From a virus, in IMG/VR virus record IMGVR_UViG_3300045943_000001, positions 1 to 64,000 of that record: a DNA stretch of 64,000 nt. One strand, written 5' to 3'. A program made the translations under genes and the position numbers. This document shows, piece by piece, positions 5,949 to 38,819 of this stretch. Numbering within the stretch: the first letter of the stretch is position 1; the number at the start of each line of letters is the position of its first letter. Under the pieces are notes generated by a model. The model saw only the letters and a program-made list of their open reading frames with translations, searched no databases and was not told the origin of the DNA.

Positions 5949-7730
5949 ATGACCACTAATACCACGATAACCTTAGCATCGTCATTTAGTGAATTGCGAA
6001 CAACCAAACCCACAGTAGAGGGACAGTTAATTACTCTACAAGGCTGGAATGCTGGCACCTATGTAGGAGGGGGTCAGTTCGTTGGACACCTTGTTACACA
6101 AGGTCAGTCACAGAAAGCCGATGATGGGGGTGTTGTTGCAGCAGGGAGAGGTTACTATTGGGAACGTGTTGTAAACGACCCATCAAAGTTAACTATCGTT
6201 GACTTCGGTGCAATCGCTGATGGTAAAACAGATATTGCCGTTGCTGCTACTGCTATGCACAAGTGGTCTTTAGCCAATAGTCGAGGAGTGGGAATCCAGC
6301 TACCTTCGGGTCGCCTGTTCCTGTCAAAACTTGCCTTGTTGACGGAGTCTAACTTTTTCCGCATGTCAGGAGCCCCAACTACGTTCGGGTATTTTGCTAG
6401 TACTACTATTGTTACCGATACGGGTCCGGTAGATGCAACGGGTAAACCATTAGAAGAATTCTTAATTGATGTCAAACACCGCTGGGTAGAAATAACCAAT
6501 ATTGTCTTTGAGGGTGTTAGTACTACTGCTAACCCAAATAAGAAAGGGATCTTCCGTAATAATGTCATCGGTGGACAATATTTCAGAGGGAGCTGTTTAC
6601 GCTTCGTTAGAATCGGTGGAACATGTTTCAGTCTGATTGATACCCTAGACAGCAAGATCGACCAATGGTACACGAGCGATACGACGGGAGATATTGTCGT
6701 AGGTACGTGGTCTGGCCGTCAAGCAGGTTCTTGGGATCACTCAACAGCGTTGGAGTTGAGCAACTTTAATGTCCAGGGAAGCAAGCTGGGTAAAGTATTC
6801 GATCTTCAGCGTTGTACTCAAGCTTTAATCCGTAATGGCTGGATTGAACACAGTGATAACCCCGGTACGCTTTGTGGTGGACACTGGAGAATTGATAACC
6901 TCAGTATGGAAGATTGTGCTACCAAACTGAAAGCGTCTTGTGCTCAATTGACAGAGGTCAATAAAAACCATCACGGTGATTATTCCGGCATTGATTATAC
7001 CCGCGATGATTCCGATCAATGGTTGAGTGAGTGGGAACGCGGTCGTGTGGACATCAATCCATGGGGTGTCTATATTGATCGTTCATTAGAACCCGGTACA
7101 TTGATGTCGCGAAACAAGCTCATCAATATGACCGGTGCATCTAACTGGTTCCAGTTGGGGACATTCTGTTTACCCGAAGAAGGCGACAGTTTAGATATCA
7201 ACATGGTGGGTTGTGGAAATATTCTTTCTACGGGTGCCCGTCTTGATGATATCGATGGTGTAAGGCAAGGTGGGGGTAATACACTTATTCGCATTCATCT
7301 TCTTCAGAAAGGGAATGTGGGCGCAACACTTCAGCCGGTAGGTTCAAGTCCAGTCAGTGCCGCCAAGTTTGTAAAAGTTGGTGCGGGTAAACTCGTGGTG
7401 TACGTACAAATGAAAGCGTTCACCAAGAATGTTATTCCGATGGTCACTGCTACATCAAAAACTCGGTACGAGGCTGGAGTATCCTATTACTTCACACCAG
7501 ACATCAAAGCAATTAGCGAAGATGATCTGAAGAAAGTAGAGGGTATTACTGATATTCTTGAACAATGGTCAATTGGTCATAATGCCGGTATCGGAGCCAC
7601 CAACGATGGTAACCTGATTCTCAGAGGTAAAATTGTTGATGGTCATTTGGCCGTTCAAGTCAATCTGGGAACAGATGACAAACCTAACGTGCAAACGCGT
7701 TATTTGCAATTGAAGTCTGATACTAAATAA
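5949..7730 (+). CDS. pectate-lyase-superfamily beta-helix protein (depolymerase / tailspike-like)
   Basis: aggag RBS. LTIVDFGAIADGKTDIAVAATAM matches the (V/I)xDFGAxGDGxTD opening of Pectate_lyase_3-type phage depolymerases, preceded by GYYWERV. Has its own terminator. Confidence 0.6.
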   Translation: MTTNTTITLASSFSELRTTKPTVEGQLITLQGWNAGTYVGGGQFVGHLVTQGQSQKADDGGVVAAGRGYYWERVVNDPSKLTIVDFGAIADGKTDIAVAATAMHKWSLANSRGVGIQLPSGRLFLSKLALLTESNFFRMSGAPTTFGYFASTTIVTDTGPVDATGKPLEEFLIDVKHRWVEITNIVFEGVSTTANPNKKGIFRNNVIGGQYFRGSCLRFVRIGGTCFSLIDTLDSKIDQWYTSDTTGDIVVGTWSGRQAGSWDHSTALELSNFNVQGSKLGKVFDLQRCTQALIRNGWIEHSDNPGTLCGGHWRIDNLSMEDCATKLKASCAQLTEVNKNHHGDYSGIDYTRDDSDQWLSEWERGRVDINPWGVYIDRSLEPGTLMSRNKLINMTGASNWFQLGTFCLPEEGDSLDINMVGCGNILSTGARLDDIDGVRQGGGNTLIRIHLLQKGNVGATLQPVGSSPVSAAKFVKVGAGKLVVYVQMKAFTKNVIPMVTATSKTRYEAGVSYYFTPDIKAISEDDLKKVEGITDILEQWSIGHNAGIGATNDGNLILRGKIVDGHLAVQVNLGTDDKPNVQTRYLQLKSDTK

Positions 7731-17608: not shown

Positions 17609-19522
17609 ATGCTCGACCAACGTAACTCTTCTGACAACAACAACTCTGGTTCAAACAACTCAGGTAATAAATCAAACATGTCAAACAACCCGTTACTCGC
17701 CCTGCTGGGCACGCAGAACCTGATCTCCTCTACTAACCAGATCGCTGAAGTCAATGAAGTGATGAAAAACCTGGAAGAGACGATCGAGTCCCTGAACAAA
17801 AACACCGCGACTGATACCCAGAAACTGACTCTGCCAAAAGAAGTGCGCACCATCACTTCTGATATCTCTCCAAACCTGCCAGGTCTGACTCTGCACACCG
17901 TCATCGGTGCAACAGTCTACGTTATGCCAGTACTGTTCTACAAAGTAGGCATCACTGAAGTGACCGAATCGATCCACCTGCAAAACGAAGCTGCGGCGCG
18001 CGCAATCGCTAAACCTGCTTCTGGCTTCATGGATGCAGAACTGATTGAGAAAGTGAAAACTCAGTTCAGCTACGTTGATGGCAAACAGGTGAGCAAAGTG
18101 ATCATCCTGGCTCCGATCGTTCGTAACCTGGAACCGTACATCAAAAATCAGTTCTCTCCTGATGACATGATCGTGCAGGTACGCAACAGCATCCTGAAAG
18201 AGTGGTCAACCTCTCTGTGGAACATCGCTTCTCTGGAAGCAGCCAAAGAAGGTATCGAATTCCCGAACCCGTTCAAAGACGGTAAACTGTTCGGTAAAGA
18301 TGATGCGGCTGTGGCACGTATCGAACCAGTTAACAAACTGATCATCGACGGCGTACCAACTCCGTATAACCTGGCGGCTAAGATCTCTACCACCAACAAA
18401 AACAACACCCAGACCTCAAGCAGCACCCAGAGCCGTTCTGTTGCAACTGCACACATGACTGTTACTCTGGAAGCAATGTCTCAGAGCCAGTTCATGCAGA
18501 AGCGTGCACAACAGCCTGGTAACGTTGTAGGTCCACTGGTTCCCGTTGTTTCTACTGGTCTGACTGTTCCTGGCGAAACCCTGAACAACAACAGCTCTCT
18601 GCTGACAGCACTGCTGGGTCTGTACGCATCAATCGGTGCGAACAACATCAACTATCTGTCTGAAGCGTTCCGTGGCAAAGAAGTGGGTCACCGTGGTAAC
18701 ATCGGTAACTTCAACCACTATCTGAACCAGATGCTGGGTGCGAACTTCGGTACTGCGCAATACATCACTGACAAAAACATCACCAATGCCCAAACTGTTA
18801 ACCAGTGGCTGAGCACCTACATCGCTCCGCAAGCTGTTTACGTTCTGGACCTGTCGACGTTTACTCACGATGTTGCGAACTCCGATTTCTGGTGGTCACT
18901 GGCTGCTAAGCCTTCTGGTTCTACCTATCATCGCACACTGGTAACTCTGCTGGATGCGTTGTCTAAAGGTGAATTCAGCAAGCTGGCTCAGGCTAACGCT
19001 GCGAAAGGTCAAGCACGTAACCTGCGTACCGAATGGGCTCCAGGTGACGCTATCCTGAAAACCACCAACATCATCCTGCCGGCAGGTATCGCGATGGCTA
19101 AAGATGGTAAGTGGTTTGACCTGGCTGAAGTTGACGGCATGTTCCTGCGTCAGGATCAGTACTACGGTCAGAACGAACCAGCGATCAATGAGTATCAAGC
19201 TCTGGTCAACGGTTCTATGGGTGGCGATAACATCCGCGTTCGTCAGTACAACATCTATAACCGTTTGATGCAGCTGTTTGGCGCAAACGTAATTCTGGAT
19301 GGTTGGAACCGTCGCTTCATCTGGGAAAACAGCTTCTTCGCAACCTTCGCACAAGCAATGGCTGCGGCTGGTACTCTGTCTCTGTCTGGTTCTAATACTG
19401 CGACCATGTGGAGCATGAACACCGGTAACGATTACCTGAACTATGCTATTACTGCTCAGCTGACTCAGTCTGTACAGGCTGCTGGCTTCGGTGGCTTTAA
19501 CGGCACGTTCTCTCAGTACTAA
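17609..19522 (+). CDS. chmA: phage nuclear shell protein (chimallin) candidate
   Basis: 637 aa, in the size range of known chimallins. Disordered Asn/Ser-rich N terminus. Extreme host-optimal codon bias. Long AT-rich upstream region with multiple promoter-like boxes. Directly followed by the beta-prime N-terminal RNAP gene, as I recall for phiKZ gp54/gp55. Confidence 0.7.
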   Translation: MLDQRNSSDNNNSGSNNSGNKSNMSNNPLLALLGTQNLISSTNQIAEVNEVMKNLEETIESLNKNTATDTQKLTLPKEVRTITSDISPNLPGLTLHTVIGATVYVMPVLFYKVGITEVTESIHLQNEAAARAIAKPASGFMDAELIEKVKTQFSYVDGKQVSKVIILAPIVRNLEPYIKNQFSPDDMIVQVRNSILKEWSTSLWNIASLEAAKEGIEFPNPFKDGKLFGKDDAAVARIEPVNKLIIDGVPTPYNLAAKISTTNKNNTQTSSSTQSRSVATAHMTVTLEAMSQSQFMQKRAQQPGNVVGPLVPVVSTGLTVPGETLNNNSSLLTALLGLYASIGANNINYLSEAFRGKEVGHRGNIGNFNHYLNQMLGANFGTAQYITDKNITNAQTVNQWLSTYIAPQAVYVLDLSTFTHDVANSDFWWSLAAKPSGSTYHRTLVTLLDALSKGEFSKLAQANAAKGQARNLRTEWAPGDAILKTTNIILPAGIAMAKDGKWFDLAEVDGMFLRQDQYYGQNEPAINEYQALVNGSMGGDNIRVRQYNIYNRLMQLFGANVILDGWNRRFIWENSFFATFAQAMAAAGTLSLSGSNTATMWSMNTGNDYLNYAITAQLTQSVQAAGFGGFNGTFSQY

Positions 19523-27299: not shown

Positions 27300-28931
27300 A
27301 TGCAATACCTTACTCGTATGTCGGGTAAAAAGAATATCGACGCCATTAAGGTTATCCATAATGGTGAAGAGTTAGTCTTCAATGGTAGCCAAAAGGTAAA
27401 CGGTGGTGATGCCAACCAAGAACTCTTTGAGTATCTAAACGAATTCTTTCTCGGTTGTTCTCAGGACAGATTAGATAAACTTTGGTCTCTGATGAAGGAC
27501 GCCAAACGTATTCTGTCGCCAGGGTATTTTGACGAACCTGAAACTGAAGAACTGCTGGAACTTCGTAAATATAATCAGGACTATAAGTTCCTGACACGTA
27601 AACTCGAAGATGTCATAAATGAGATGTATCGGGAATTTAAACCCAATGACATCGTTTATGGTGCGACGGTTACTGGCAGAACGAATCCACCGAAAGATCT
27701 GATGGCTATGTCTCAGCTGGGAGATTATCCAGAAGAAACTACCATTGACCCACGTAAGTATGTTGAACTTGTCAAGTTAGCATTTGCTACTCAACTCTGT
27801 TTTCCTGTGGTTAATCAGCTTCTTGATCATGTATCAATCATGGCGGGTAAAGACAGCAAAGATGCTGTAGCGGGTGAATATCTGATCTCTAAGATCAAAC
27901 CGTTAACAGAGATGACTGGTTGGACAATTCTGGATACATATGTTCGTGCATCATGTTTGCGTCAAGAATCGCGTCGTAATACCATTGCGGTGACAAGCGA
28001 TGTTAAAGCCATCAATAGCATCGTTTATAAAGGTTTGTTCAACAAACTGTGTCTGACCTTCCTGCCGAGTAAGATTAACGGTAAGAACTTATCTAAGGAA
28101 TTAAACTCCTTAGTGGAAGGTGAACTGCGTGGAACATCTGACGTCAAATTCAAAACGTATAATGATCCGAAACCTGGTTCCGATGATCAATCCATTCCAG
28201 AAAGTTATCGTATCACTCAGGCAGTAAATGGTACAGATGAATTGGCGCAAGCCGAATATTTCACCTTTGATCTGTACATTGAGTCTGAAGGACTTGATGA
28301 TTTTGGTGAACCCACAACGATCTGGTTGAAGAAGAACAAAGACTTCTTCTATTATCAGTGTTTGGGCTTTGGGATTAAGAATCAGAAGTTAGCCGAGAAA
28401 CTCTTTAACACACTTCCTCGTGTATGGAACTTTCGTTTGACCATGATTCACCTGAAACTACTTCAGTTAACTTTCCAAAATGACATCAACTATAACTTGT
28501 ATCCGGCATTGAAATATGACCAGTTAATGGCAGCGATTTGTCTGGCACAAGTGAAGTTGTTTGAGATGGGCTACGAACACTTAGCACAGCTGTGTTCGAT
28601 TATCCGTAATCCAAGTTATCCAACAGTGTTCCTGGATGATGACTTTAAACTCAATACCAAAGATCGCGATACACTGGTTGAGATGTGCGACATTTATGTT
28701 GGGCAATCGACATCCAGTACAGATAACATCCTGGTTAAAGCAGCAACCGATTTACTGGATGAATTAAGTACCTCAGGCTGGGATTCTACAATTGAACCTG
28801 GTCTACTCGGTAATCCTGATTTTGTTGCGGTGATGTCAACGGGACAATTGTACCAAGTTGATCTTACACCTGCGATCAAACGCGAGCTTATCGATCTTAT
28901 TAAACAGTCAAATACTTTAGAGGCAGAATAA
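27300..28931 (+). CDS. hypothetical protein (543 aa)
   Basis: ggaga RBS and a promoter-like box at 27255-27281. First gene of a coupled three-gene block. Confidence 0.85.
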   Translation: MQYLTRMSGKKNIDAIKVIHNGEELVFNGSQKVNGGDANQELFEYLNEFFLGCSQDRLDKLWSLMKDAKRILSPGYFDEPETEELLELRKYNQDYKFLTRKLEDVINEMYREFKPNDIVYGATVTGRTNPPKDLMAMSQLGDYPEETTIDPRKYVELVKLAFATQLCFPVVNQLLDHVSIMAGKDSKDAVAGEYLISKIKPLTEMTGWTILDTYVRASCLRQESRRNTIAVTSDVKAINSIVYKGLFNKLCLTFLPSKINGKNLSKELNSLVEGELRGTSDVKFKTYNDPKPGSDDQSIPESYRITQAVNGTDELAQAEYFTFDLYIESEGLDDFGEPTTIWLKKNKDFFYYQCLGFGIKNQKLAEKLFNTLPRVWNFRLTMIHLKLLQLTFQNDINYNLYPALKYDQLMAAICLAQVKLFEMGYEHLAQLCSIIRNPSYPTVFLDDDFKLNTKDRDTLVEMCDIYVGQSTSSTDNILVKAATDLLDELSTSGWDSTIEPGLLGNPDFVAVMSTGQLYQVDLTPAIKRELIDLIKQSNTLEAE

Positions 28932-31960: not shown

Positions 31961-31988
31961 CTACTCCCTACGATATCGTAGGGAGTAG
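31961..31988. terminator. bidirectional terminator between convergent genes
   Basis: Stem ctactccctacga / tcgtagggagtag. Confidence 0.7.
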
Positions 31989-32349: not shown

Positions 32350-32391
32350 TTTGAATCTCCAATAATTTTCTTGCTAAAGATAATCAAGCAG

Positions 32392-32411
32392 ATATTATCT
32401 TTATGTATAAT
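32392..32411 (+). promoter_or_regulatory. candidate phage promoter
   Basis: ATATTATC-ttta-TGTATAAT, 40 nt before the RNAP beta ATG. It overlaps the 9-bp inverted repeat aaagataat / attatcttt (32376-32402). Confidence 0.45.
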
Positions 32412-32431: not shown

Positions 32432-34531
32432 ATGGATCAGCACAATCAGATAAAACCGAATACGGCCGGCGTCGCTATCGGAATGAACACAAACAGGGCA
32501 ACCAACTCCCCTTCTCGTTTGTATATGCTCGGGAAGAACCAGGGTAAGGCTGCTGTAATCCACGGTACAACCAATCGTAAATATATTTCCGGTGACGAAC
32601 AGGAATATGCGAAAGGTGCTCGTAAAGTAGAAACCAATTCGGATGTAGAGGTCGAAGAGATCCTCTTTGTTCGTAATATCCTTAACGATAAGGAACCCAA
32701 CCAGTGGGGCTCTCACTTCATCATTGTCAAGGATCTGGAAACCGGTCTTTATGACGTCATTGAGATGGCTAAGTTCCACACTCAAAATATGGATCTTGGG
32801 TTCGAGTATCAGTACGATAAAGATCTATTACGATCTGTGGAGAAAGGTGCCCGGTTTCGTAAAGGAACTGTATTTGGAACTTCTGCACGTATCACTGAAA
32901 GTAACGAATGGGTCCCGGGTGTGGAAACCAAAGTTGCGGCGATGTCTCACGTTTATACCGAAGAGGACGCAGTAGTCATCTTTGAACATTATGCCAAGAA
33001 GATCGGTGTAACATTTAAACGCAGTCACGACTTCCAGTGGGATGAAGATGAGTATATTCCATTGAACCTCTATGGAACAATTGATAATCCTCAACCATTT
33101 CCATTATCGGGTGAAGCTGTTCGTGCAGACGGCATCGTCATGGGCTTTCGGCGTAAAGATGCAGACACCGCTATGGCGGCATTGACCAAATCAGCATTGA
33201 TGAGACCGGATCCTATTTATGACGTATTGTATCACGTAACCAGTCCTAACTGTGTTGTTGCTGATATCGAAGTTACCACGGAGCGTTATAAGAACGTTTC
33301 TAATAACAAACGTGCCGAGAAACGCAGTCAACCTCATACTGTCATTCTGGAACGTATCGAAGAAGCCCAGAACGATTTCGCTAACTCTATTGTGAAATGG
33401 TTCAAAGAAAAACAACGCATCTATAAAGACAAGAAGGTTCCGATTTCTCGTGCGCTGTGGAATCTGATCTGCTTTGAAGGCATGGGTGGGATTACGCGTG
33501 ACTTCAGTACACCAACCAGTCAAGGTCGGTATAATAAAGTTAAACGCAAAACCGGTAATATCCAGTTGAAAGACTGGCGTGTAAAGATCCATTTGCGTGA
33601 AGACGTGGAAGGTAAGACACGCTTTAAGAATACCGGTATGGACGGTAACAAATCGATTATCATGAAAGTCCTGCCATCTTACATGGCGCCAGTGGATGAT
33701 CATGGTAATGTGGCTGACATGATCGTGGGTAACACCCCTGGTTATCGTCGCCAGATTTATAACTCGTTCATGGAACTGGACATCAACTTCATCAATATCC
33801 ATCTGTATCCGAAGATCGTGGAAGCTTATAATAACAAAGACTATGCAACAGCATGGGACATTGCTTATAAGTTCTATGAGACGGCCTCTCCAGAACACGG
33901 TGCCATTATGGACACCTTTACTGAAGAGATGCGGATGAAACACTTACAATGGATCATGGCAGACGAGAACGAGTTTGCCGCGGTGGGTAATAACACCAAT
34001 GACCTGCAAGGTGTAAAGATCATTGAGCGATTTGTTGATCGGTATCCTGATATCCAACCTACACCTGTTACATTCGTTAACCCGTGGGGTGAAAAGAAAC
34101 GCAGTCGTCACCCAATCGTTATCAGTAGTGTGTATTACATTATGTTGGATAAGTTTGGTGATGATATCTCCTGCCAGTCTACTCCGAAGCTGAACATCTT
34201 TGGGCTACCAACTTCTTTGTCTAAGCATGAACGTGCACGTGATTTCTATCGTGCTACGCTGAACCGAAATGTGGGTGAAACCGAAGGTCGTCTGTTTATC
34301 AATCAGAAAGGTGGTGCAGCAGCAACGCGAATGTTGGCCTGGGCAAACTCCGCTGAACTGTTAGAAGCTTCGGTCGAACGTTTGATCCGTGCAGAAAACC
34401 CTTTCCTGATTCCGGAGTTGATCAAACCGGGTGAAGAGAGAAAGAACCACTCCCTTCAGGTAATTGATAACATGTTCTCTGATTTTGGCTTAGTATTAAG
34501 GAAAGAGCGTGAAAACGATAAAGTTACGTGA
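32432..34531 (+). CDS. multisubunit RNAP beta subunit, C-terminal fragment
   Basis: GKTRFKNTGMDGNKSIIMKVLP..APVDDHGNVADMIVGNTPG aligns with the beta motif GDKxAGRHGNKGVxSKIxP...DGTPVDIVLNPLG (GMDGNKS at 33635-33655). Downstream, YYIMLDKFGDD..NVGETEGRLF resembles YxxKLxHxVDDK..FGEME. Confidence 0.85.
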   Translation: MDQHNQIKPNTAGVAIGMNTNRATNSPSRLYMLGKNQGKAAVIHGTTNRKYISGDEQEYAKGARKVETNSDVEVEEILFVRNILNDKEPNQWGSHFIIVKDLETGLYDVIEMAKFHTQNMDLGFEYQYDKDLLRSVEKGARFRKGTVFGTSARITESNEWVPGVETKVAAMSHVYTEEDAVVIFEHYAKKIGVTFKRSHDFQWDEDEYIPLNLYGTIDNPQPFPLSGEAVRADGIVMGFRRKDADTAMAALTKSALMRPDPIYDVLYHVTSPNCVVADIEVTTERYKNVSNNKRAEKRSQPHTVILERIEEAQNDFANSIVKWFKEKQRIYKDKKVPISRALWNLICFEGMGGITRDFSTPTSQGRYNKVKRKTGNIQLKDWRVKIHLREDVEGKTRFKNTGMDGNKSIIMKVLPSYMAPVDDHGNVADMIVGNTPGYRRQIYNSFMELDINFINIHLYPKIVEAYNNKDYATAWDIAYKFYETASPEHGAIMDTFTEEMRMKHLQWIMADENEFAAVGNNTNDLQGVKIIERFVDRYPDIQPTPVTFVNPWGEKKRSRHPIVISSVYYIMLDKFGDDISCQSTPKLNIFGLPTSLSKHERARDFYRATLNRNVGETEGRLFINQKGGAAATRMLAWANSAELLEASVERLIRAENPFLIPELIKPGEERKNHSLQVIDNMFSDFGLVLRKERENDKVT

Positions 34532-36530
34532 GTTTGCAAACCTGTCCTGTATGTCCATGTTGCAGTTTACGGAACGCCGTATCAGAATCGAAGTGATCGA
34601 TGATGTTGGTGAGAAACAAATCACCGATACCTGGATGCTAGGGTTATCCTGGTTCAGTCTGATTGTCCATCGTCATTATAATGACGAGCCGTATCACATT
34701 GACGAGCTGGCGCTGTTGAAAGAGAAAGACGGACGCCAGTCCTTTATCGATGACGATACGTTGAAGAAGCCAATTGATAACTTCTTAAAGCGCCTGATGC
34801 CGAAGTATGATGATCCGGTGTTCTATGATTTTATCAAGCAGTTGATCTTTACCTGGCATAACCAATGTCATAACTATCTGGCGATCAAAGGTGAGACAGG
34901 TGTGGTATCTGCACGTGCTGTCGATATCGTCCACATCTATCGCCATCCCAAGATCAAAGACCTGCGTGAACGTGTACACAGTCGTAAAACCAATATGGCT
35001 GACGCACACAAAGAGTTCGAGCAGATTATGATGACAGAGCACGACCTGGATAAGTTGGTCTTTACTCTGTTGTATCGTACTCGATCGGTAAACTCCACAC
35101 AGTCTTTCCAGTTAATCGTTTCTCGTGGTGACGTGTTTGACTTAAACAACGTTATTCTACCGAATACGATTATGACCAGTTATGGTGACGGGATTACCAA
35201 CCTGGCGGATTCCCTGGGTGACTCCAAAGGCGCGGGTTTCTCTCTGATCAGTAACGGTTCTGCACTTCAGGACTCCGAGTGGTTCCATAAAAAGATCCAC
35301 AACGTATCTCAAGTTGTGCAGAGCATTCGTTATCAAACTGATTGTGGTTCAACCACAGGTCCGGTACTCAAGATCATCAGTACGGAGTTTAAGAAGTCGT
35401 TAGTGGGGCGTTGGACAATCAATGATGATGGATCTAACACCTTACTGACTTATGACGAAATCAAGAAGTTGGAAACAGGGGAAACGATTCGTATCCGTGA
35501 CGTGGCCTGGTGTAATACCTCGCATAACGGCAAACCTTGTTCCAAGTGTTTCGGTAAAATGGAATCGGCTATTCCGTATAACCCATTTACAAAGAAAGCC
35601 GGTGTTCCAGGTCTGTTCTATGGTTCGACGTTCGCTGAACCTATTGGTCAGTCGATCCTGAAAACTAAACACCGTATCGGTTCTGCAACCTCTGTTGGGT
35701 TTAAAGTGGAGCGTGCTGACTTACCGTATATCACCACCGATGAAACCGGTGACTTCATTTATTTCCATAAAGATATCCTGAATGACGTTTCTGATCCTTA
35801 TATTATCTTGGACAAAGAAACTCAGCAGGACTTCTCTGACTTCCAATTCATGGACAGCATAGAAGATTTAGATGCGACTCGTTTTCGTACTTATGAAGCG
35901 ATTAAACTTAAAGTCAGCATTGTTAACCCAATGTTCGATGATAAGAAAGCAACTTACTTCCCCGTACTGACCACTACGATTGCATCTCGTGATGCCAGAA
36001 TGACTAAAACGTTCATTCAGTATCTGTTGAGTAAACCAATGGAAGAAGAAGGTCGTAACTTTAAGATTTCGTTGAAAGACTATAATTTTAAAGAGCCGGC
36101 ATTTGAACTTCCTCAGGTTAACGAAGATTTGGATGCATATCGTAAACGTGTTGAGAACTTCCTAAAATTCCCGCATGTCAATAATCGCTGGGATGTGAAG
36201 GTGACACCAGAACTCCATGGTGAGACACTGATCGCATTCTGGAAGGTAGTTGATGAGAAGTATAAGGAAGCAAACTCCATCATGCACTCCATCTTCTTAT
36301 GGGCGTGTATGGCACGTAATCCAGAGAACCTGGACTTTGGTATTCCTGTGGGTCAAGAAGAGCGTAACTTCATTAGCCTACATACTGCGGTACTGAACCG
36401 TGGTCTCGGTAATACCTTGCTGTATGGTTGGCAGGCAAGTGCTTTGCTCGGTCATCCAAACAACATGCGTATCAAAAACCGTCAGGGCGGTGCACTGGAA
36501 GCGTTCATGCATCCAATCGCTCGCGATTAA
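34509..36530 (+). CDS. multisubunit RNAP beta-prime, C-terminal fragment (bridge helix to trigger loop and beyond)
   Basis: GTG start after aaggaaagag. ..YQTDCGST.., then CSKCFG (like CxxCYG), then STFAEPIGQSILKTKHRIGSA (like SIGEPGTQLTMRTFHIGG, the trigger loop). Confidence 0.85.
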   Translation: MKTIKLREFANLSCMSMLQFTERRIRIEVIDDVGEKQITDTWMLGLSWFSLIVHRHYNDEPYHIDELALLKEKDGRQSFIDDDTLKKPIDNFLKRLMPKYDDPVFYDFIKQLIFTWHNQCHNYLAIKGETGVVSARAVDIVHIYRHPKIKDLRERVHSRKTNMADAHKEFEQIMMTEHDLDKLVFTLLYRTRSVNSTQSFQLIVSRGDVFDLNNVILPNTIMTSYGDGITNLADSLGDSKGAGFSLISNGSALQDSEWFHKKIHNVSQVVQSIRYQTDCGSTTGPVLKIISTEFKKSLVGRWTINDDGSNTLLTYDEIKKLETGETIRIRDVAWCNTSHNGKPCSKCFGKMESAIPYNPFTKKAGVPGLFYGSTFAEPIGQSILKTKHRIGSATSVGFKVERADLPYITTDETGDFIYFHKDILNDVSDPYIILDKETQQDFSDFQFMDSIEDLDATRFRTYEAIKLKVSIVNPMFDDKKATYFPVLTTTIASRDARMTKTFIQYLLSKPMEEEGRNFKISLKDYNFKEPAFELPQVNEDLDAYRKRVENFLKFPHVNNRWDVKVTPELHGETLIAFWKVVDEKYKEANSIMHSIFLWACMARNPENLDFGIPVGQEERNFISLHTAVLNRGLGNTLLYGWQASALLGHPNNMRIKNRQGGALEAFMHPIARD

Positions 36531-36544
36531 TTAAACGGACAAGG

Positions 36545-36754
36545 ATGTCCATCATTAGGGTAACTGTCATGGAATATAAATTCGATGATCTGTTGAAAAC
36601 GATACACGAAACTCAGTGCTGCATAAAGGGTAAGTGGGTTCCATGTCGTCCAAAAGACAATAAAGGTTGGCCGGGATTTAAAATACGCGTGCGGTCAGCA
36701 TGGCGTGTTCTAACCGGAAAGTCTGATGCCTTTACTTGGCCAGGTGGACAGTAA
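36545..36754 (+). CDS. small Cys/Trp-rich protein (69 aa)
   Basis: ATG preceded by aagga. The track's longer start lies inside the RNAP gene. Stop overlaps the next ATG (TAATG). Confidence 0.55.
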   Translation: MSIIRVTVMEYKFDDLLKTIHETQCCIKGKWVPCRPKDNKGWPGFKIRVRSAWRVLTGKSDAFTWPGGQ

Positions 36755-36987
36755 TGAAAACAATCGTATCATTAGCTGAAATAGAACCCGGTGACCTGAT
36801 TGAAGTGTCGTCTGATTCTGGCGGGATTGAAAGTGCACCATTTACCCGCGAAGTGGTTAAATCAAATTCCTCTTCTTTATCGATTACGGATGGCGATGAA
36901 ACTTGGTCGATTGAACCTTCTATGGAAAACTATGACAAAACCGTGGAAATGAAATCGGGTAATTTCTGTCATATTTTTCATAAGTAG
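36754..36987 (+). CDS. small acidic protein (77 aa), paralogue of 37317-37562
   Basis: LAEIEPGDLIEVSSDSGGIESAPFTREVV versus ILEIKPGQLVEVKSKAGGIQQAPFVTTVA in the paralogue. Confidence 0.65.
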   Translation: MKTIVSLAEIEPGDLIEVSSDSGGIESAPFTREVVKSNSSSLSITDGDETWSIEPSMENYDKTVEMKSGNFCHIFHK

Positions 36988-37003
36988 TTTTTAAGGAAAC
37001 GTA

Positions 37004-37336
37004 ATGCGCATTACTTCTACCCCAGGAGAAATCCTGAAAGAAGAATATATGGTTCCACACAAGCTCTCCAGTAATAAACTGGCCAAGCTTTTGGATGTGT
37101 CGGAATCTGCACTGAGTCGTTTGATTAGCGGTAAGGCATCATTAGGCACAGAGATGGCTTTACGGTTAGGTAAGGTGTTCGGAACCACTCCGATGTTTTG
37201 GATCAATCTGCAAACAACCTTTGACATTTCAGAGGCACGCGCAGATAAGGTTCTACAGGCAGAAATTGATAAATTGAAGCCCTTCTTTAAACCTTCCATT
37301 ACTGAAAATCGCACAGATGCTCAAATCGATTCTTGA
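37004..37336 (+). CDS. higA: HigA/VapI-family HTH antitoxin-like protein (XRE-type)
   Basis: TPGEILKEEYMVPHKLSSNKLAKLLDVSESALSRLISGKASLGTEMALRLGKVFGTTPMFWINLQTTFD follows the HigA consensus HPGEIL-EE-L-P-GLS-LA-LGVS-IS-I-NGKR-IT-MALRL-FG-S-WLNLQ-YDL. aagga RBS. Confidence 0.85.
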   Translation: MRITSTPGEILKEEYMVPHKLSSNKLAKLLDVSESALSRLISGKASLGTEMALRLGKVFGTTPMFWINLQTTFDISEARADKVLQAEIDKLKPFFKPSITENRTDAQIDS

Positions 37337-37562
37337 GATTAAACCTGGTCAGTTGGTTGAAGTCAAATCTAAAGCCGGTGGGATTCAGCAGGCTCCTTTT
37401 GTTACAACCGTAGCCACGGTCACCGAAGAGGGTTTTACATCAACGGATGATCTCTATGCTGGATACGTCTTTCCGTTAAACATGGATCACTACATCGGGA
37501 CAATCGATGTCGCACCCATGACAGGGAAAGCAGGATTCACCATGCAAGTATTCTCACAATAA
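37317..37562 (+). CDS. small protein (81 aa), paralogue of 36754-36987
   Basis: Overlaps the higA-like gene end by 20 nt. Terminator at 37567. Confidence 0.65.
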   Translation: MLKSILEIKPGQLVEVKSKAGGIQQAPFVTTVATVTEEGFTSTDDLYAGYVFPLNMDHYIGTIDVAPMTGKAGFTMQVFSQ

Positions 37563-37566
37563 ACCT

Positions 37567-37602
37567 ACCTACTTCCTGTAAAAGGGAAGTAGGTATTTAT
37601 TC
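37567..37602 (+). terminator. intrinsic terminator
   Basis: Stem acctacttcc / ggaagtaggt, 8-nt loop, then atttattctt. Confidence 0.65.
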
Positions 37603-37664: not shown

Positions 37665-38018
37665 ATGAGTAAGAAATACGCCCATTACTGTGGCATAGGG
37701 GAAACCTATCCACTGCCTGTATCGGGAGATAAAATTATCTCTGCCGGTATTAAATCAATTGGATTAGATAGTGGAGAGGTTGTTGCATTTCCCGACAACC
37801 GTAAATTTGTTCCCTCATTTGATCAATCTAAATCTGATTATATCTTGATCGCTGCTTGGGCAAGTGACGATGTAGAAGAGGAAGAAAAGATTACTCTGAG
37901 AGGGACAATCAACTTACAGGCTAAACATGTAACATTTACCGGCAAAGGTTATAAGCATGTTGAGGTCGAATATATCGTGAAGGAAGATAATTTATGGGAA
38001 TCCCTCGCCATAAACTGA
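37665..38018 (+). CDS. tandem-paralogue family member 1 (117 aa)
   Basis: ATG (MSKKYAH...) lies 36 nt after the promoter-like box at 37629. Shared core: AFPDNRKFVPSFDQSKSDYILI..W.S....I..INL....V.F.GKGY. Confidence 0.7.
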   Translation: MSKKYAHYCGIGETYPLPVSGDKIISAGIKSIGLDSGEVVAFPDNRKFVPSFDQSKSDYILIAAWASDDVEEEEKITLRGTINLQAKHVTFTGKGYKHVEVEYIVKEDNLWESLAIN

Positions 38019-38392
38019 TGGGTAAACCCGATGGGGTCTATTACGTTACGCGTAAGAAGCCATTCACCATCCCTGACAAGTTAGATGAGAATTGTCTCTT
38101 TGTACTCGTATCGGGTTCCTTAGTTGCTTACGACGGACCTGAGTTTACCTGTGCGGTATTCCCAGAGAAAGAGTTTGTTCCGTCGTTTGATAAAGCGAAA
38201 GAAAAGACCACCCTCATTAATATGTGGGCGAGTCGCAATCCTGCTGAAGATGCTAAGATCAAGATCACAGCAGAAATTAATCTTGAAACGGGTGAAGTGA
38301 AAGTTGACGGCACCGGTTATCAGTTTGTTGTTATTCACATGTACCGTTTAAATAAGGAAAGTAAAGATGTCAATAAAACTTCAGCATGTTGA
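37994..38392 (+). CDS. tandem-paralogue family member 2 (132 aa)
   Basis: aaggaag RBS. Core: VFPEKEFVPSFDKAKEKTTLINMWAS..KIKITAEINLETGEVKVDGTGY. Confidence 0.7.
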   Translation: MGIPRHKLMGKPDGVYYVTRKKPFTIPDKLDENCLFVLVSGSLVAYDGPEFTCAVFPEKEFVPSFDKAKEKTTLINMWASRNPAEDAKIKITAEINLETGEVKVDGTGYQFVVIHMYRLNKESKDVNKTSAC

Positions 38393-38819
38393 TCTGGTAT
38401 TGGGTGCACCTACCGAAGCCACAATCGTTAAGTTACCATCATCTATGGTGAATAAGGCGTTTGACTTCTTTTTGACCGAGATCAAAAATGGTGATGACGT
38501 TATTGTCGAGTTCGACAAGCCAAAACAAATGGTACCGACATTTGACAAATCGAAATCTGATTCTATTCTGATACTGCAATATAGTAATGCAGAAGAGCAA
38601 ATCCCTGCTACAATCGCAGTGATACTTGAATTGGATCTCAACGAAGGGGTCGTTAAAATGACCGGTCACGGCTTCACTCAGGCGACTCTGTCTGTAGAGA
38701 TCGAAGAATTTCCAACCACCGGACAAATAGAATCTATGCACGCCGAAGACGTTAAAGCTAACGAAGCTAATAACGTTGAGGACGCCTATGACGCTTCTGG
38801 TGAAGACCTGGGAAAGTAA
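38367..38819 (+). CDS. tandem-paralogue family member 3 (150 aa) with acidic C-terminal extension
   Basis: aaggaaag RBS. Core: FDKPKQMVPTFDKSKSDSILILQYS..LDLNEGVVKMTGHGF. Confidence 0.7.
   Translation: MSIKLQHVDLVLGAPTEATIVKLPSSMVNKAFDFFLTEIKNGDDVIVEFDKPKQMVPTFDKSKSDSILILQYSNAEEQIPATIAVILELDLNEGVVKMTGHGFTQATLSVEIEEFPTTGQIESMHAEDVKANEANNVEDAYDASGEDLGK

Follow-up and report, generated by a model that had tools for sequence, protein, structure and literature searches.

A HigA-family antitoxin homologue without a cognate toxin in a nucleus-forming jumbo phage, and its possible role in counter-defence

A 64,000-nucleotide stretch of viral DNA (positions 1 to 64,000 of the IMG/VR record IMGVR_UViG_3300045943_000001), hereafter the window, contains a gene for a 110-residue protein that resembles HigA, the antitoxin of HigB-HigA toxin-antitoxin (TA) modules. 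The gene is not accompanied by a gene for a HigB-type toxin, which raises the question of what an antitoxin alone would do for a phage. A preliminary description of the window, made from the sequence, had proposed either a stand-alone antitoxin or a regulator of the flanking genes. Here, we find that the gene encodes a genuine HigA-family antitoxin homologue, and we tentatively favor a role for it in counter-defence.

Family assignment and predicted structure of the HigA-like protein

37004-37336, + strand: HigA-family helix-turn-helix (HTH) antitoxin homologue without a cognate toxin, 110 residues, ATG start, identified from profiles and an AlphaFold model
36993-36998, + strand: Shine-Dalgarno-like box AAGGAA, 5 nucleotides 5' of the HigA-like ATG

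The HigA-like protein matched the NCBIfam equivalog model TIGR02607 (antidote_HigA, HigA family addiction module antitoxin) with 90.5 bits (E 4.6e-26), well above the curated cut-off of 47.7 bits. The alignment was full length, with residues 1-80 of the protein corresponding to positions 1-80 of the 81 in the model. Pfam reported a single domain, the generic HTH_3 (34.7 bits). PHROG 1381, a family annotated as 'plasmid antitoxin with HTH domain', was matched with an E-value of 5e-23, and PADLOC returned nothing significant for this protein. Every sequence match in the PDB was a HigA-type antitoxin: YbaQ (2eby), VapI from Coxiella (3trb), PaHigA (7csv), GraA (6f8s), Proteus HigA (4mcx) and E. 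coli CFT073 HigA. The COG3093-type HigA pattern that had been read from a peptide corresponding to residues 6-74 is thus borne out by both the curated model and the solved structures. Taken together, these matches establish the gene as a genuine HigA-family (TIGR02607/COG3093) antitoxin homologue.

An AlphaFold model, which drew on 21 homologues, has a mean predicted local distance difference test score (pLDDT) of 81.9 and is confident across residues 7-94. It contains six helices (residues 7-16, 23-30, 34-41, 49-59, 63-80 and 82-94), the third of which is the HTH recognition helix, and shows the helical xenobiotic response element (XRE)-type HTH domain followed by the long C-terminal dimerization helix that characterize the fold. 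Residues 100-110 form a predicted disordered tail that is specific to the phage clade. A Foldseek search of the PDB returned HigA, GraA, VapI or YbaQ structures for all of the top 41 matches, with template modelling scores of 0.73-0.88 (normalized by target length). Generic XRE regulators ranked below these matches, with E-values at least sixfold weaker.

Absence of a HigB-like toxin

The preliminary description had seen no RelE/HigB-like toxin next to the gene, and our searches agree. The neighboring genes have no toxin match in Pfam, NCBIfam or PADLOC. We built a HigB profile from 55 PF05015-type open reading frames (ORFs) that lie upstream of the HigA genes of bacterial relatives; all 10 of the upstream ORFs sampled matched Pfam PF05015, at 59-146 bits. 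This profile, which scored 94-128 bits on positive controls, was negative for the neighboring genes. Run against all six reading frames of the 64-kb window, it gave no match (best E 1.7), nor did it give one in 15 related phage loci (93.6 kb). The HigA-like locus therefore lacks the adjacent HigB (PF05015) gene of a type II module.

The nearest cellular relatives are typically paired. A HigB-like segment is located immediately upstream, on the same strand, in 65 of the 80 best bacterial-genome loci (at least 81%). The closest non-phage homologue sits directly behind a PF05015 toxin, and this is the arrangement of P0011 (50% identity) and P0013 (45%). Homologous HigAs were also found in 858 plasmid records, 40 of them from Pantoea. 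On the one plasmid example examined, a small enterobacterial plasmid, the HigB-like toxin gene is divergent and 337 nucleotides from HigA. Judged from the plasmid HigA homologues, candidate target toxins are abundant in the likely host order, Enterobacterales. We also considered a recent capture of the gene from a host and found it unsupported, because even the best relatives among cells and plasmids reach no more than 48-51% identity and are taxonomically scattered.

Toxin-binding and DNA-binding faces

We mapped the contacts described for GraA and PaHigA onto the HigA-like protein via a gap-free alignment with a four-residue offset, which agrees with the residue identities named in the papers. 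GraA contacts its toxin through R7, E13, E18, D64, T66 and N72, and receives it in a hydrophobic pocket of I9, I14, F19, M23, L63, F69 and L73 (PMC6393540). DNA is contacted by P39, N42 and R46 in GraA, and by S26, R32, T40, D43, R49 and S52 in PaHigA. Nine of the 11 alignable GraA toxin-contact positions are identical or conservatively substituted in the HigA-like protein (E9, I10, E14, Y15, F59, T62, F65, N68 and L69). These residues are near-invariant across the 10-member phage clade and coincide with signature motifs of the family. The recognition-helix motif LSRL..GK is also kept in the phage clade. Most bacterial relatives have Arg at positions 36 and 45, the phage clade does not, and a loss of DNA binding was considered on this basis. 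We rejected it, since the same SRL..GK helix is present in the bona fide HigA of E. coli CFT073 and in plasmid HigAs. Judged by its sequence, the HigA-like protein appears to be a full HigA in which both faces are preserved.

The DNA-binding face is the basis of the main alternative explanation. Here toxin binding would be a vestige, and the protein would serve as an XRE-type regulator that binds as a dimer to a palindromic site in phage DNA, or in host DNA in the cytoplasm, and modulates transcription. Its HTH_3 domain is intact, and the phage clade conserves its recognition helix, which is of the same type as that of the DNA-binding HigAs of E. coli CFT073 and plasmids. All characterized HigA-family proteins are operator-binding repressors (PMC6987408, PMC6393540), and YbaQ has been kept as a conserved regulator without a toxin. 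Furthermore, several records of the phage homologues carry the annotation 'transcriptional regulator'. Against this explanation, the toxin-contact residues E9, E14, T62 and N68 are still invariant or nearly so. We give such a regulatory role somewhat lower odds than a role in counter-defence, also in view of the arrangement of the operon.

Organization of the operon

32371-32402, + strand: promoter-like site over a perfect 9-bp inverted repeat, AAAGATAAT-N9-ATTATCTTT, 5' of the RNA polymerase (RNAP) operon
32432-36530, + strand: two overlapping phage multisubunit RNAP genes (699 and 673 residues), resembling the phiKZ gp71-74 non-virion block
36569-36754, + strand: ORF for a 61-residue basic protein (isoelectric point (pI) 9.6, phrog_21988), the conserved upstream neighbor
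36754-36987, + strand: ORF for a 77-residue acidic protein (pI 4.45, phrog_32154), an extra paralogue of the 81-residue gene
37317-37562, + strand: ORF for an 81-residue acidic protein (pI 4.75, phrog_32154), overlapping the 3' end of the HigA-like gene by 20 nucleotides
37566-37595, + strand: hairpin terminator, a 12-bp stem followed by a T-run, just 3' of the 81-residue gene

The HigA-like gene belongs to a single + strand unit that is headed by the two RNAP genes and continues with the 61-residue, 77-residue, HigA-like and 81-residue genes. Relatives of the RNAP genes include PhiPA3 gp065, annotated as 'similar to gp071', which in phiKZ belongs to the non-virion polymerase block gp71-74. 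The unit lies between two strong hairpins, one at 31961-31988 and the other at 37566-37595. Only 16 nucleotides separate the HigA-like gene from the gene before it; they contain neither a promoter-like site nor a palindrome and leave no room for a separate promoter. Thus, the HigA-like gene lacks the promoter with a palindromic operator that a type II module has of its own.

The perfect inverted repeat at the operon promoter (32376-32402; 627-653 of locus L001) was a candidate HigA operator. It is identical in Erwinia phage AH04. Three related phages that lack a HigA-like gene here also keep it, Kc263 and OBP in full and Pantoea phage Survivor in part. All four phages share an unchanged core, GCAGATATTATCT, which is not enriched in the window (28 matches compared to 21 expected). 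Conservation in OBP and Kc263, where the HigA-like gene is missing, rules the repeat out as a HigA operator, and we consider it a general operon element. Similar boxes, A.ATATTATC, are found 40-50 nucleotides 5' of the starts at 27300 and 37665 and may represent a phage promoter class.

These observations bear on the regulatory role in two ways. Neither an own promoter nor a nearby palindrome is available to the HigA-like gene, and the inverted repeat of the operon is conserved in relatives without a HigA-like gene at the locus. In addition, three sister phages, OBP, Kc263 and Survivor, retain the operon and do without the gene. The narrower proposal of the preliminary description, an XRE-type regulator of the flanking accessory genes, is not supported, since both the operon repeat and the 81-residue gene are kept where the HigA-like gene is not.

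Flanking genes and synteny

In OBP, Kc263 and Survivor, the RNAP genes are followed by a gene of about 61 residues and one of about 81 residues, with nothing between these two. In the AH04-like clade, the HigA-like gene is placed between them. This gene order marks the HigA-like gene as inserted between the members of a conserved pair. The slot just 5' of it is empty in AH04 and in the related loci L005 and L006, and is taken by the 77-residue paralogue in this window only. The 81-residue gene is a conserved gene of the OBP group, whether or not the HigA-like gene accompanies it.

The preliminary description had pointed to the 77-residue ORF as acidic, with a paralogue downstream, and as sitting where a higB would be. 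The first two points are correct: its product has a pI of 4.45 and is 32% identical to the 81-residue protein (E 2e-11), both belonging to phrog_32154. The position is a coincidence, since the ORF is absent from AH04, L005 and L006, and an unrelated 148-residue ORF takes its place in L007-L009. We examined whether this 148-residue insert is a tandem fusion of the 77-residue paralogue and ruled this out, as the two are unrelated.

Could one of these flanking genes nonetheless be the partner of the HigA-like gene in a novel phage-borne two-gene module, an unconventional TA or effector-regulator pair with the HigA-like protein as its antitoxin or regulator? The 20-nucleotide overlap with the 81-residue gene is conserved in L005-L009, and both flanking ORFs fall into a family without an assigned function. 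However, the 81-residue gene directly follows the 61-residue gene in OBP, Kc263 and Survivor, with no HigA-like neighbor, and the 77-residue copy is missing in the closest relatives (AH04, L005 and L006), which indicates that neither is a partner. Both products are acidic (pI 4.5-4.8), without a match to a toxin or defence family and without a HigB-profile signal, and the evolution of the 81-residue gene is slower than that of the HigA-like gene and uncoupled from it. We consider such a module highly improbable.

Small acidic proteins on both sides of an HTH gene could also suggest an anti-CRISPR-associated (Aca)-like repressor that autoregulates an operon of small anti-defence proteins, the 77- and 81-residue proteins being the effectors. 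Three Aca families and AcrIIA1 are indeed similar to HigA2/GraA-type antitoxins (PMC9410906), and the region from the RNAP genes to the helicase gene is a variable accessory zone. An Aca protein is a short HTH protein whose gene ends an acr operon and which represses its own inverted-repeat promoter; the HigA-like gene does not have this organization. The small genes are internal to the RNAP operon, without a dedicated strong promoter and inverted-repeat operator, the 81-residue gene has no HTH neighbor in OBP, Kc263 and Survivor, and the protein is a canonical HigA match of 90.5 bits rather than a short Aca-type HTH of 60-70 residues. Synteny and promoter evidence therefore speak against an Aca-like role as they do against partnership with the 81-residue gene, and there is very little probability in its favor.

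Several other features of the neighborhood were observed. The 61-residue protein is rich in Cys and Trp and is conserved across the OBP group. Its C-terminal motif, AWRVLTGK.DA, recurs at the N-terminus of the unrelated 148-residue protein (3580-4026 in L007; shared by L007-L009), which suggests a recombination scar at the insertion slot. An AlphaFold model of the 81-residue family, calculated from 7 sequences, is mostly beta-strand and of low confidence (pLDDT 59). Just 3' of the operon terminator are three tandem overlapping paralogous ORFs of 117, 132 and 150 residues (37665-38018, 37994-38392 and 38367-38819), which are 28-43% identical to one another and have no family matches. Their number and identity differ among related phages, which marks the stretch from the RNAP genes to the helicase gene as a variable accessory zone.

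Selection and allele turnover

The ratio of non-synonymous to synonymous substitution rates (dN/dS) of the HigA-like gene does not exceed about 0.22 among five clade members, a rough estimate since synonymous sites are saturated. From these sequence comparisons, the gene is functional and clearly under purifying selection. Yet no part of the operon is less conserved, whichever two phages are compared: nucleotide identity is 56-80% in this gene and 80-96% in most of the polymerase gene. Between L006 and L007 (4001-4333 of the locus), dN is 0.31 for the HigA-like gene and 0.012 for the adjacent 81-residue gene. The 81-residue proteins of this pair of otherwise very similar phages are 98.8% identical, while the HigA-like alleles are only about 60-64% identical in DNA. 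This contrast points to a cassette-like exchange of alleles at the HigA-like gene, and the divergence of the gene fits allele replacement or rapid turnover. Allele turnover is common among conflict genes, yet it is not diagnostic of them.

A nucleus-forming jumbo phage

17609-19522, + strand: chimallin-type nuclear shell protein, 637 residues (phrog_4795, E 2.5e-113)

The preliminary description had assigned the window to a jumbo phage. An identical HigA-like protein occurs on a 270,936-bp metagenomic contig, and this, together with the split RNAP subunits and the chimallin-type shell gene, supports the assignment. The window shows about 85% nucleotide identity to Erwinia phage AH04 (262 kb). 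Since it encodes chimallin, the phage is a nucleus-forming jumbo phage; OBP, a relative, is among the chimallin-encoding phages listed previously (PMC10299810). A strictly lytic lifestyle is inferred from what is known of this group of phages. An exopolysaccharide (EPS)-depolymerase-type tail protein is encoded at 5949-7730 (phrog_4250, E 2e-198) and is a hint of a host that has a capsule or produces EPS, for instance Erwinia or Pantoea.

The chimallin shell also bears on a regulatory role for the HigA-like protein: the shell encloses the phage DNA, and a regulator acting there would need to be selectively imported.

A possible role as an orphan antitoxin in counter-defence

We tentatively interpret the HigA-like protein as an orphan antitoxin that serves as cytoplasmic counter-defence against HigB-type mRNA-cleaving toxins, a reading to which we give a little under even chances. 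It gains support from the retention of the toxin-contact residues, from the pairing of the nearest relatives with HigB and from the nucleus-forming lifestyle. HigB-type toxins cut mRNA on the ribosome, and therefore act in a compartment that the phage nucleus does not protect. The gene fits an orphan-antitoxin strategy, in which a lytic phage encodes an antitoxin homologue and no cognate toxin, the toxin scan having covered the 64-kb window. Precedents for the strategy come from other systems. AdfN, an antitoxin homologue of lytic phages that acts against DarTG, was described as the first counter-defence of this kind (PMC11825919), and AdfM is a chimallivirus antitoxin homologue against DarTG (PMC13309987). 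The toxins RnlA and LsoA are neutralized by T4 Dmd (PMC7354431), and in the HigBAC system abortive infection is executed by a HigB-type toxin (PMC11980606).

A possible course of events is as follows. A lineage of OBP/AH04-like nucleus-forming jumbo phages would have acquired a HigA-family gene without its toxin. The protein would be made in the cytoplasm from the polymerase operon, alongside the phage RNAP subunits. Infection would shut down host expression, and short-lived HigA-type antitoxins of the host would be depleted, freeing HigB-type (PF05015, RelE-fold) toxins encoded by host chromosomes, plasmids or prophages. These toxins would cleave phage mRNAs on ribosomes. The phage HigA dimer could then serve as a replacement antitoxin, binding the freed toxins via its acidic alpha1/alpha5 face, and may also repress toxin operons on cytoplasmic host DNA via its intact HTH. 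Neutralization of the toxins would prevent abortive infection. It is possible, if somewhat more speculative, that nucleus-forming jumbo phages complement their DNA-protecting shell with a captured cytoplasmic type II HTH antitoxin that neutralizes HigB-type toxins or silences their operons.

Several considerations weigh against a counter-defence role. Within the phage clade, mean pairwise identity is 0.77 for the toxin face, 0.57 for the DNA face and 0.66 elsewhere, but the contrast between the two faces is not significant (P 0.09, 0.13) and mirrors that of ordinary HigB-paired bacterial HigAs (0.67, 0.38 and 0.49, respectively). For these two reasons, the comparison of faces does not tell toxin binding and DNA binding apart. 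The residues S38, R39, G43 and K44 of the HTH recognition helix are conserved as well as the toxin face, so that a pure DNA-binding role is equally compatible with the conservation, and part of the retained 'toxin-contact' residues may have a structural role. A type II antitoxin usually recognizes its cognate toxin specifically (PMC11825919), and there is little conservation of the GraA/HigA interface from one system to another (PMC6393540). No cellular or plasmid HigA comes closer than 48-51% identity, and hence no target toxin can be named. E. coli YbaQ is an orphan HigA that persists for reasons unrelated to its toxin. Finally, a literature search found no functional study of any phage HigA homologue.

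HigA homologues in other phages

Annotated HigA homologues without a toxin already exist in 172 phage records, including AH04 gp81, RAY, Ea35-70, PCH45, Miami gp155, FBKp24 gp216, phiR1-37 g308/g309 and the 'higA' of ICP1. HigA homologues are thus known from many lytic and jumbo phages, to which this gene adds one more. AH04 gp81 is its syntenic orthologue, with 70% identity. The toxin-less homologues recur at differing loci in many strictly lytic phages, and PHROGs places them in the category 'moron, auxiliary metabolic gene and host takeover'.

The domain appears in different contexts in some of these phages. In Shewanella phage SXP01 (1267-2451 of locus L017), the HigA-like domain forms the N-terminus of a 394-residue protein encoded in the same genomic slot. 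In Klebsiella phage FBKp24 (2572-3294 of L002), it lies at the C-terminus of an annotated 240-residue ORF, which could be a start-codon mis-call, as there is an internal Met just before the domain. The extra segments of both proteins have no Pfam match. Yersinia phage phiR1-37, a lytic jumbo phage, carries two HigA-like HTH genes in tandem (1587-2303 of L099), for which no toxin is annotated or was detected.

Implications

If the HigA-like protein does act in counter-defence, this would be the first use by a lytic phage of a type II, stoichiometric, DNA-binding antitoxin homologue for the purpose. We know of no demonstrated lytic-phage type II HTH antitoxin homologue that works by stoichiometric toxin binding. 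The orphan-antitoxin strategy, so far represented only by enzymatic DarG-like proteins, would extend to the commonest TA class, and modules of the HigBA type would emerge as true obstacles for jumbo phages. The turnover of alleles at the locus would then reflect the tracking of diverse host HigB toxins. It would also show how a nucleus-forming phage guards its exposed messenger RNA, and would aid the choice or engineering of therapeutic jumbo phages for higBA-rich hosts. If the protein is only a regulator, the result is a routine annotation.

Comparison with known systems

The antitoxins of HigB-HigA modules (GraA, PaHigA PA4674, Proteus/Rts1 HigA, Coxiella VapI and CFT073 HigA) fall into the same curated family as the phage protein and share with it a fully folded helical XRE fold, a long dimerization helix and an intact HTH. 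The signatures PGE..EE[FY] and FW.NLQ, which form the toxin-binding face in GraA, are common to both. Unlike these modules, the phage gene has no HigB nearby and no autoregulated promoter or operator, and it is located inside the polymerase operon of a lytic phage. The phage protein also differs from cellular HigAs in about 15 extra C-terminal residues, which are conserved only in the phage clade and are predicted to be disordered, and its identity to any cellular HigA is at most 51%.

Among solved structures, YbaQ (2eby) is the best sequence match (E 1.7e-17), characterized by 45% identity and a root-mean-square deviation of 0.8 Å in the structural alignment. In B2/F strains this HigA-type protein controls higB-1, and in K-12 it is an orphan; it thus resembles the phage gene as a toxin-less HigA that has been kept. 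However, YbaQ is chromosomal and lost its toxin in situ, whereas the virus acquired, or retained, its HigA gene alone. The other phage genes of PHROG 1381 are alike in being toxin-less and HigA-like and in belonging to large, strictly lytic phages; they differ in their genomic positions and, outside the AH04 clade, are 38-52% identical.

In terms of strategy, the closest parallels are AdfN (a NADAR protein of T4-like phages), AdfM (a macrodomain protein of chimalliviruses), AdfB of ICP1 and T4 Dmd, all of which are stand-alone antitoxins or antitoxin mimics of lytic phages directed against host TA defence. AdfN and AdfM are enzymes that reverse the ADP-ribosylation of DNA, a type IV logic, unlike a HigA-type HTH antitoxin. 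Neither Dmd nor AdfB is homologous to the cognate antitoxins, whereas the phage HigA is an antitoxin homologue. AdfM, finally, shows that chimalliviruses do use the orphan-antitoxin strategy.

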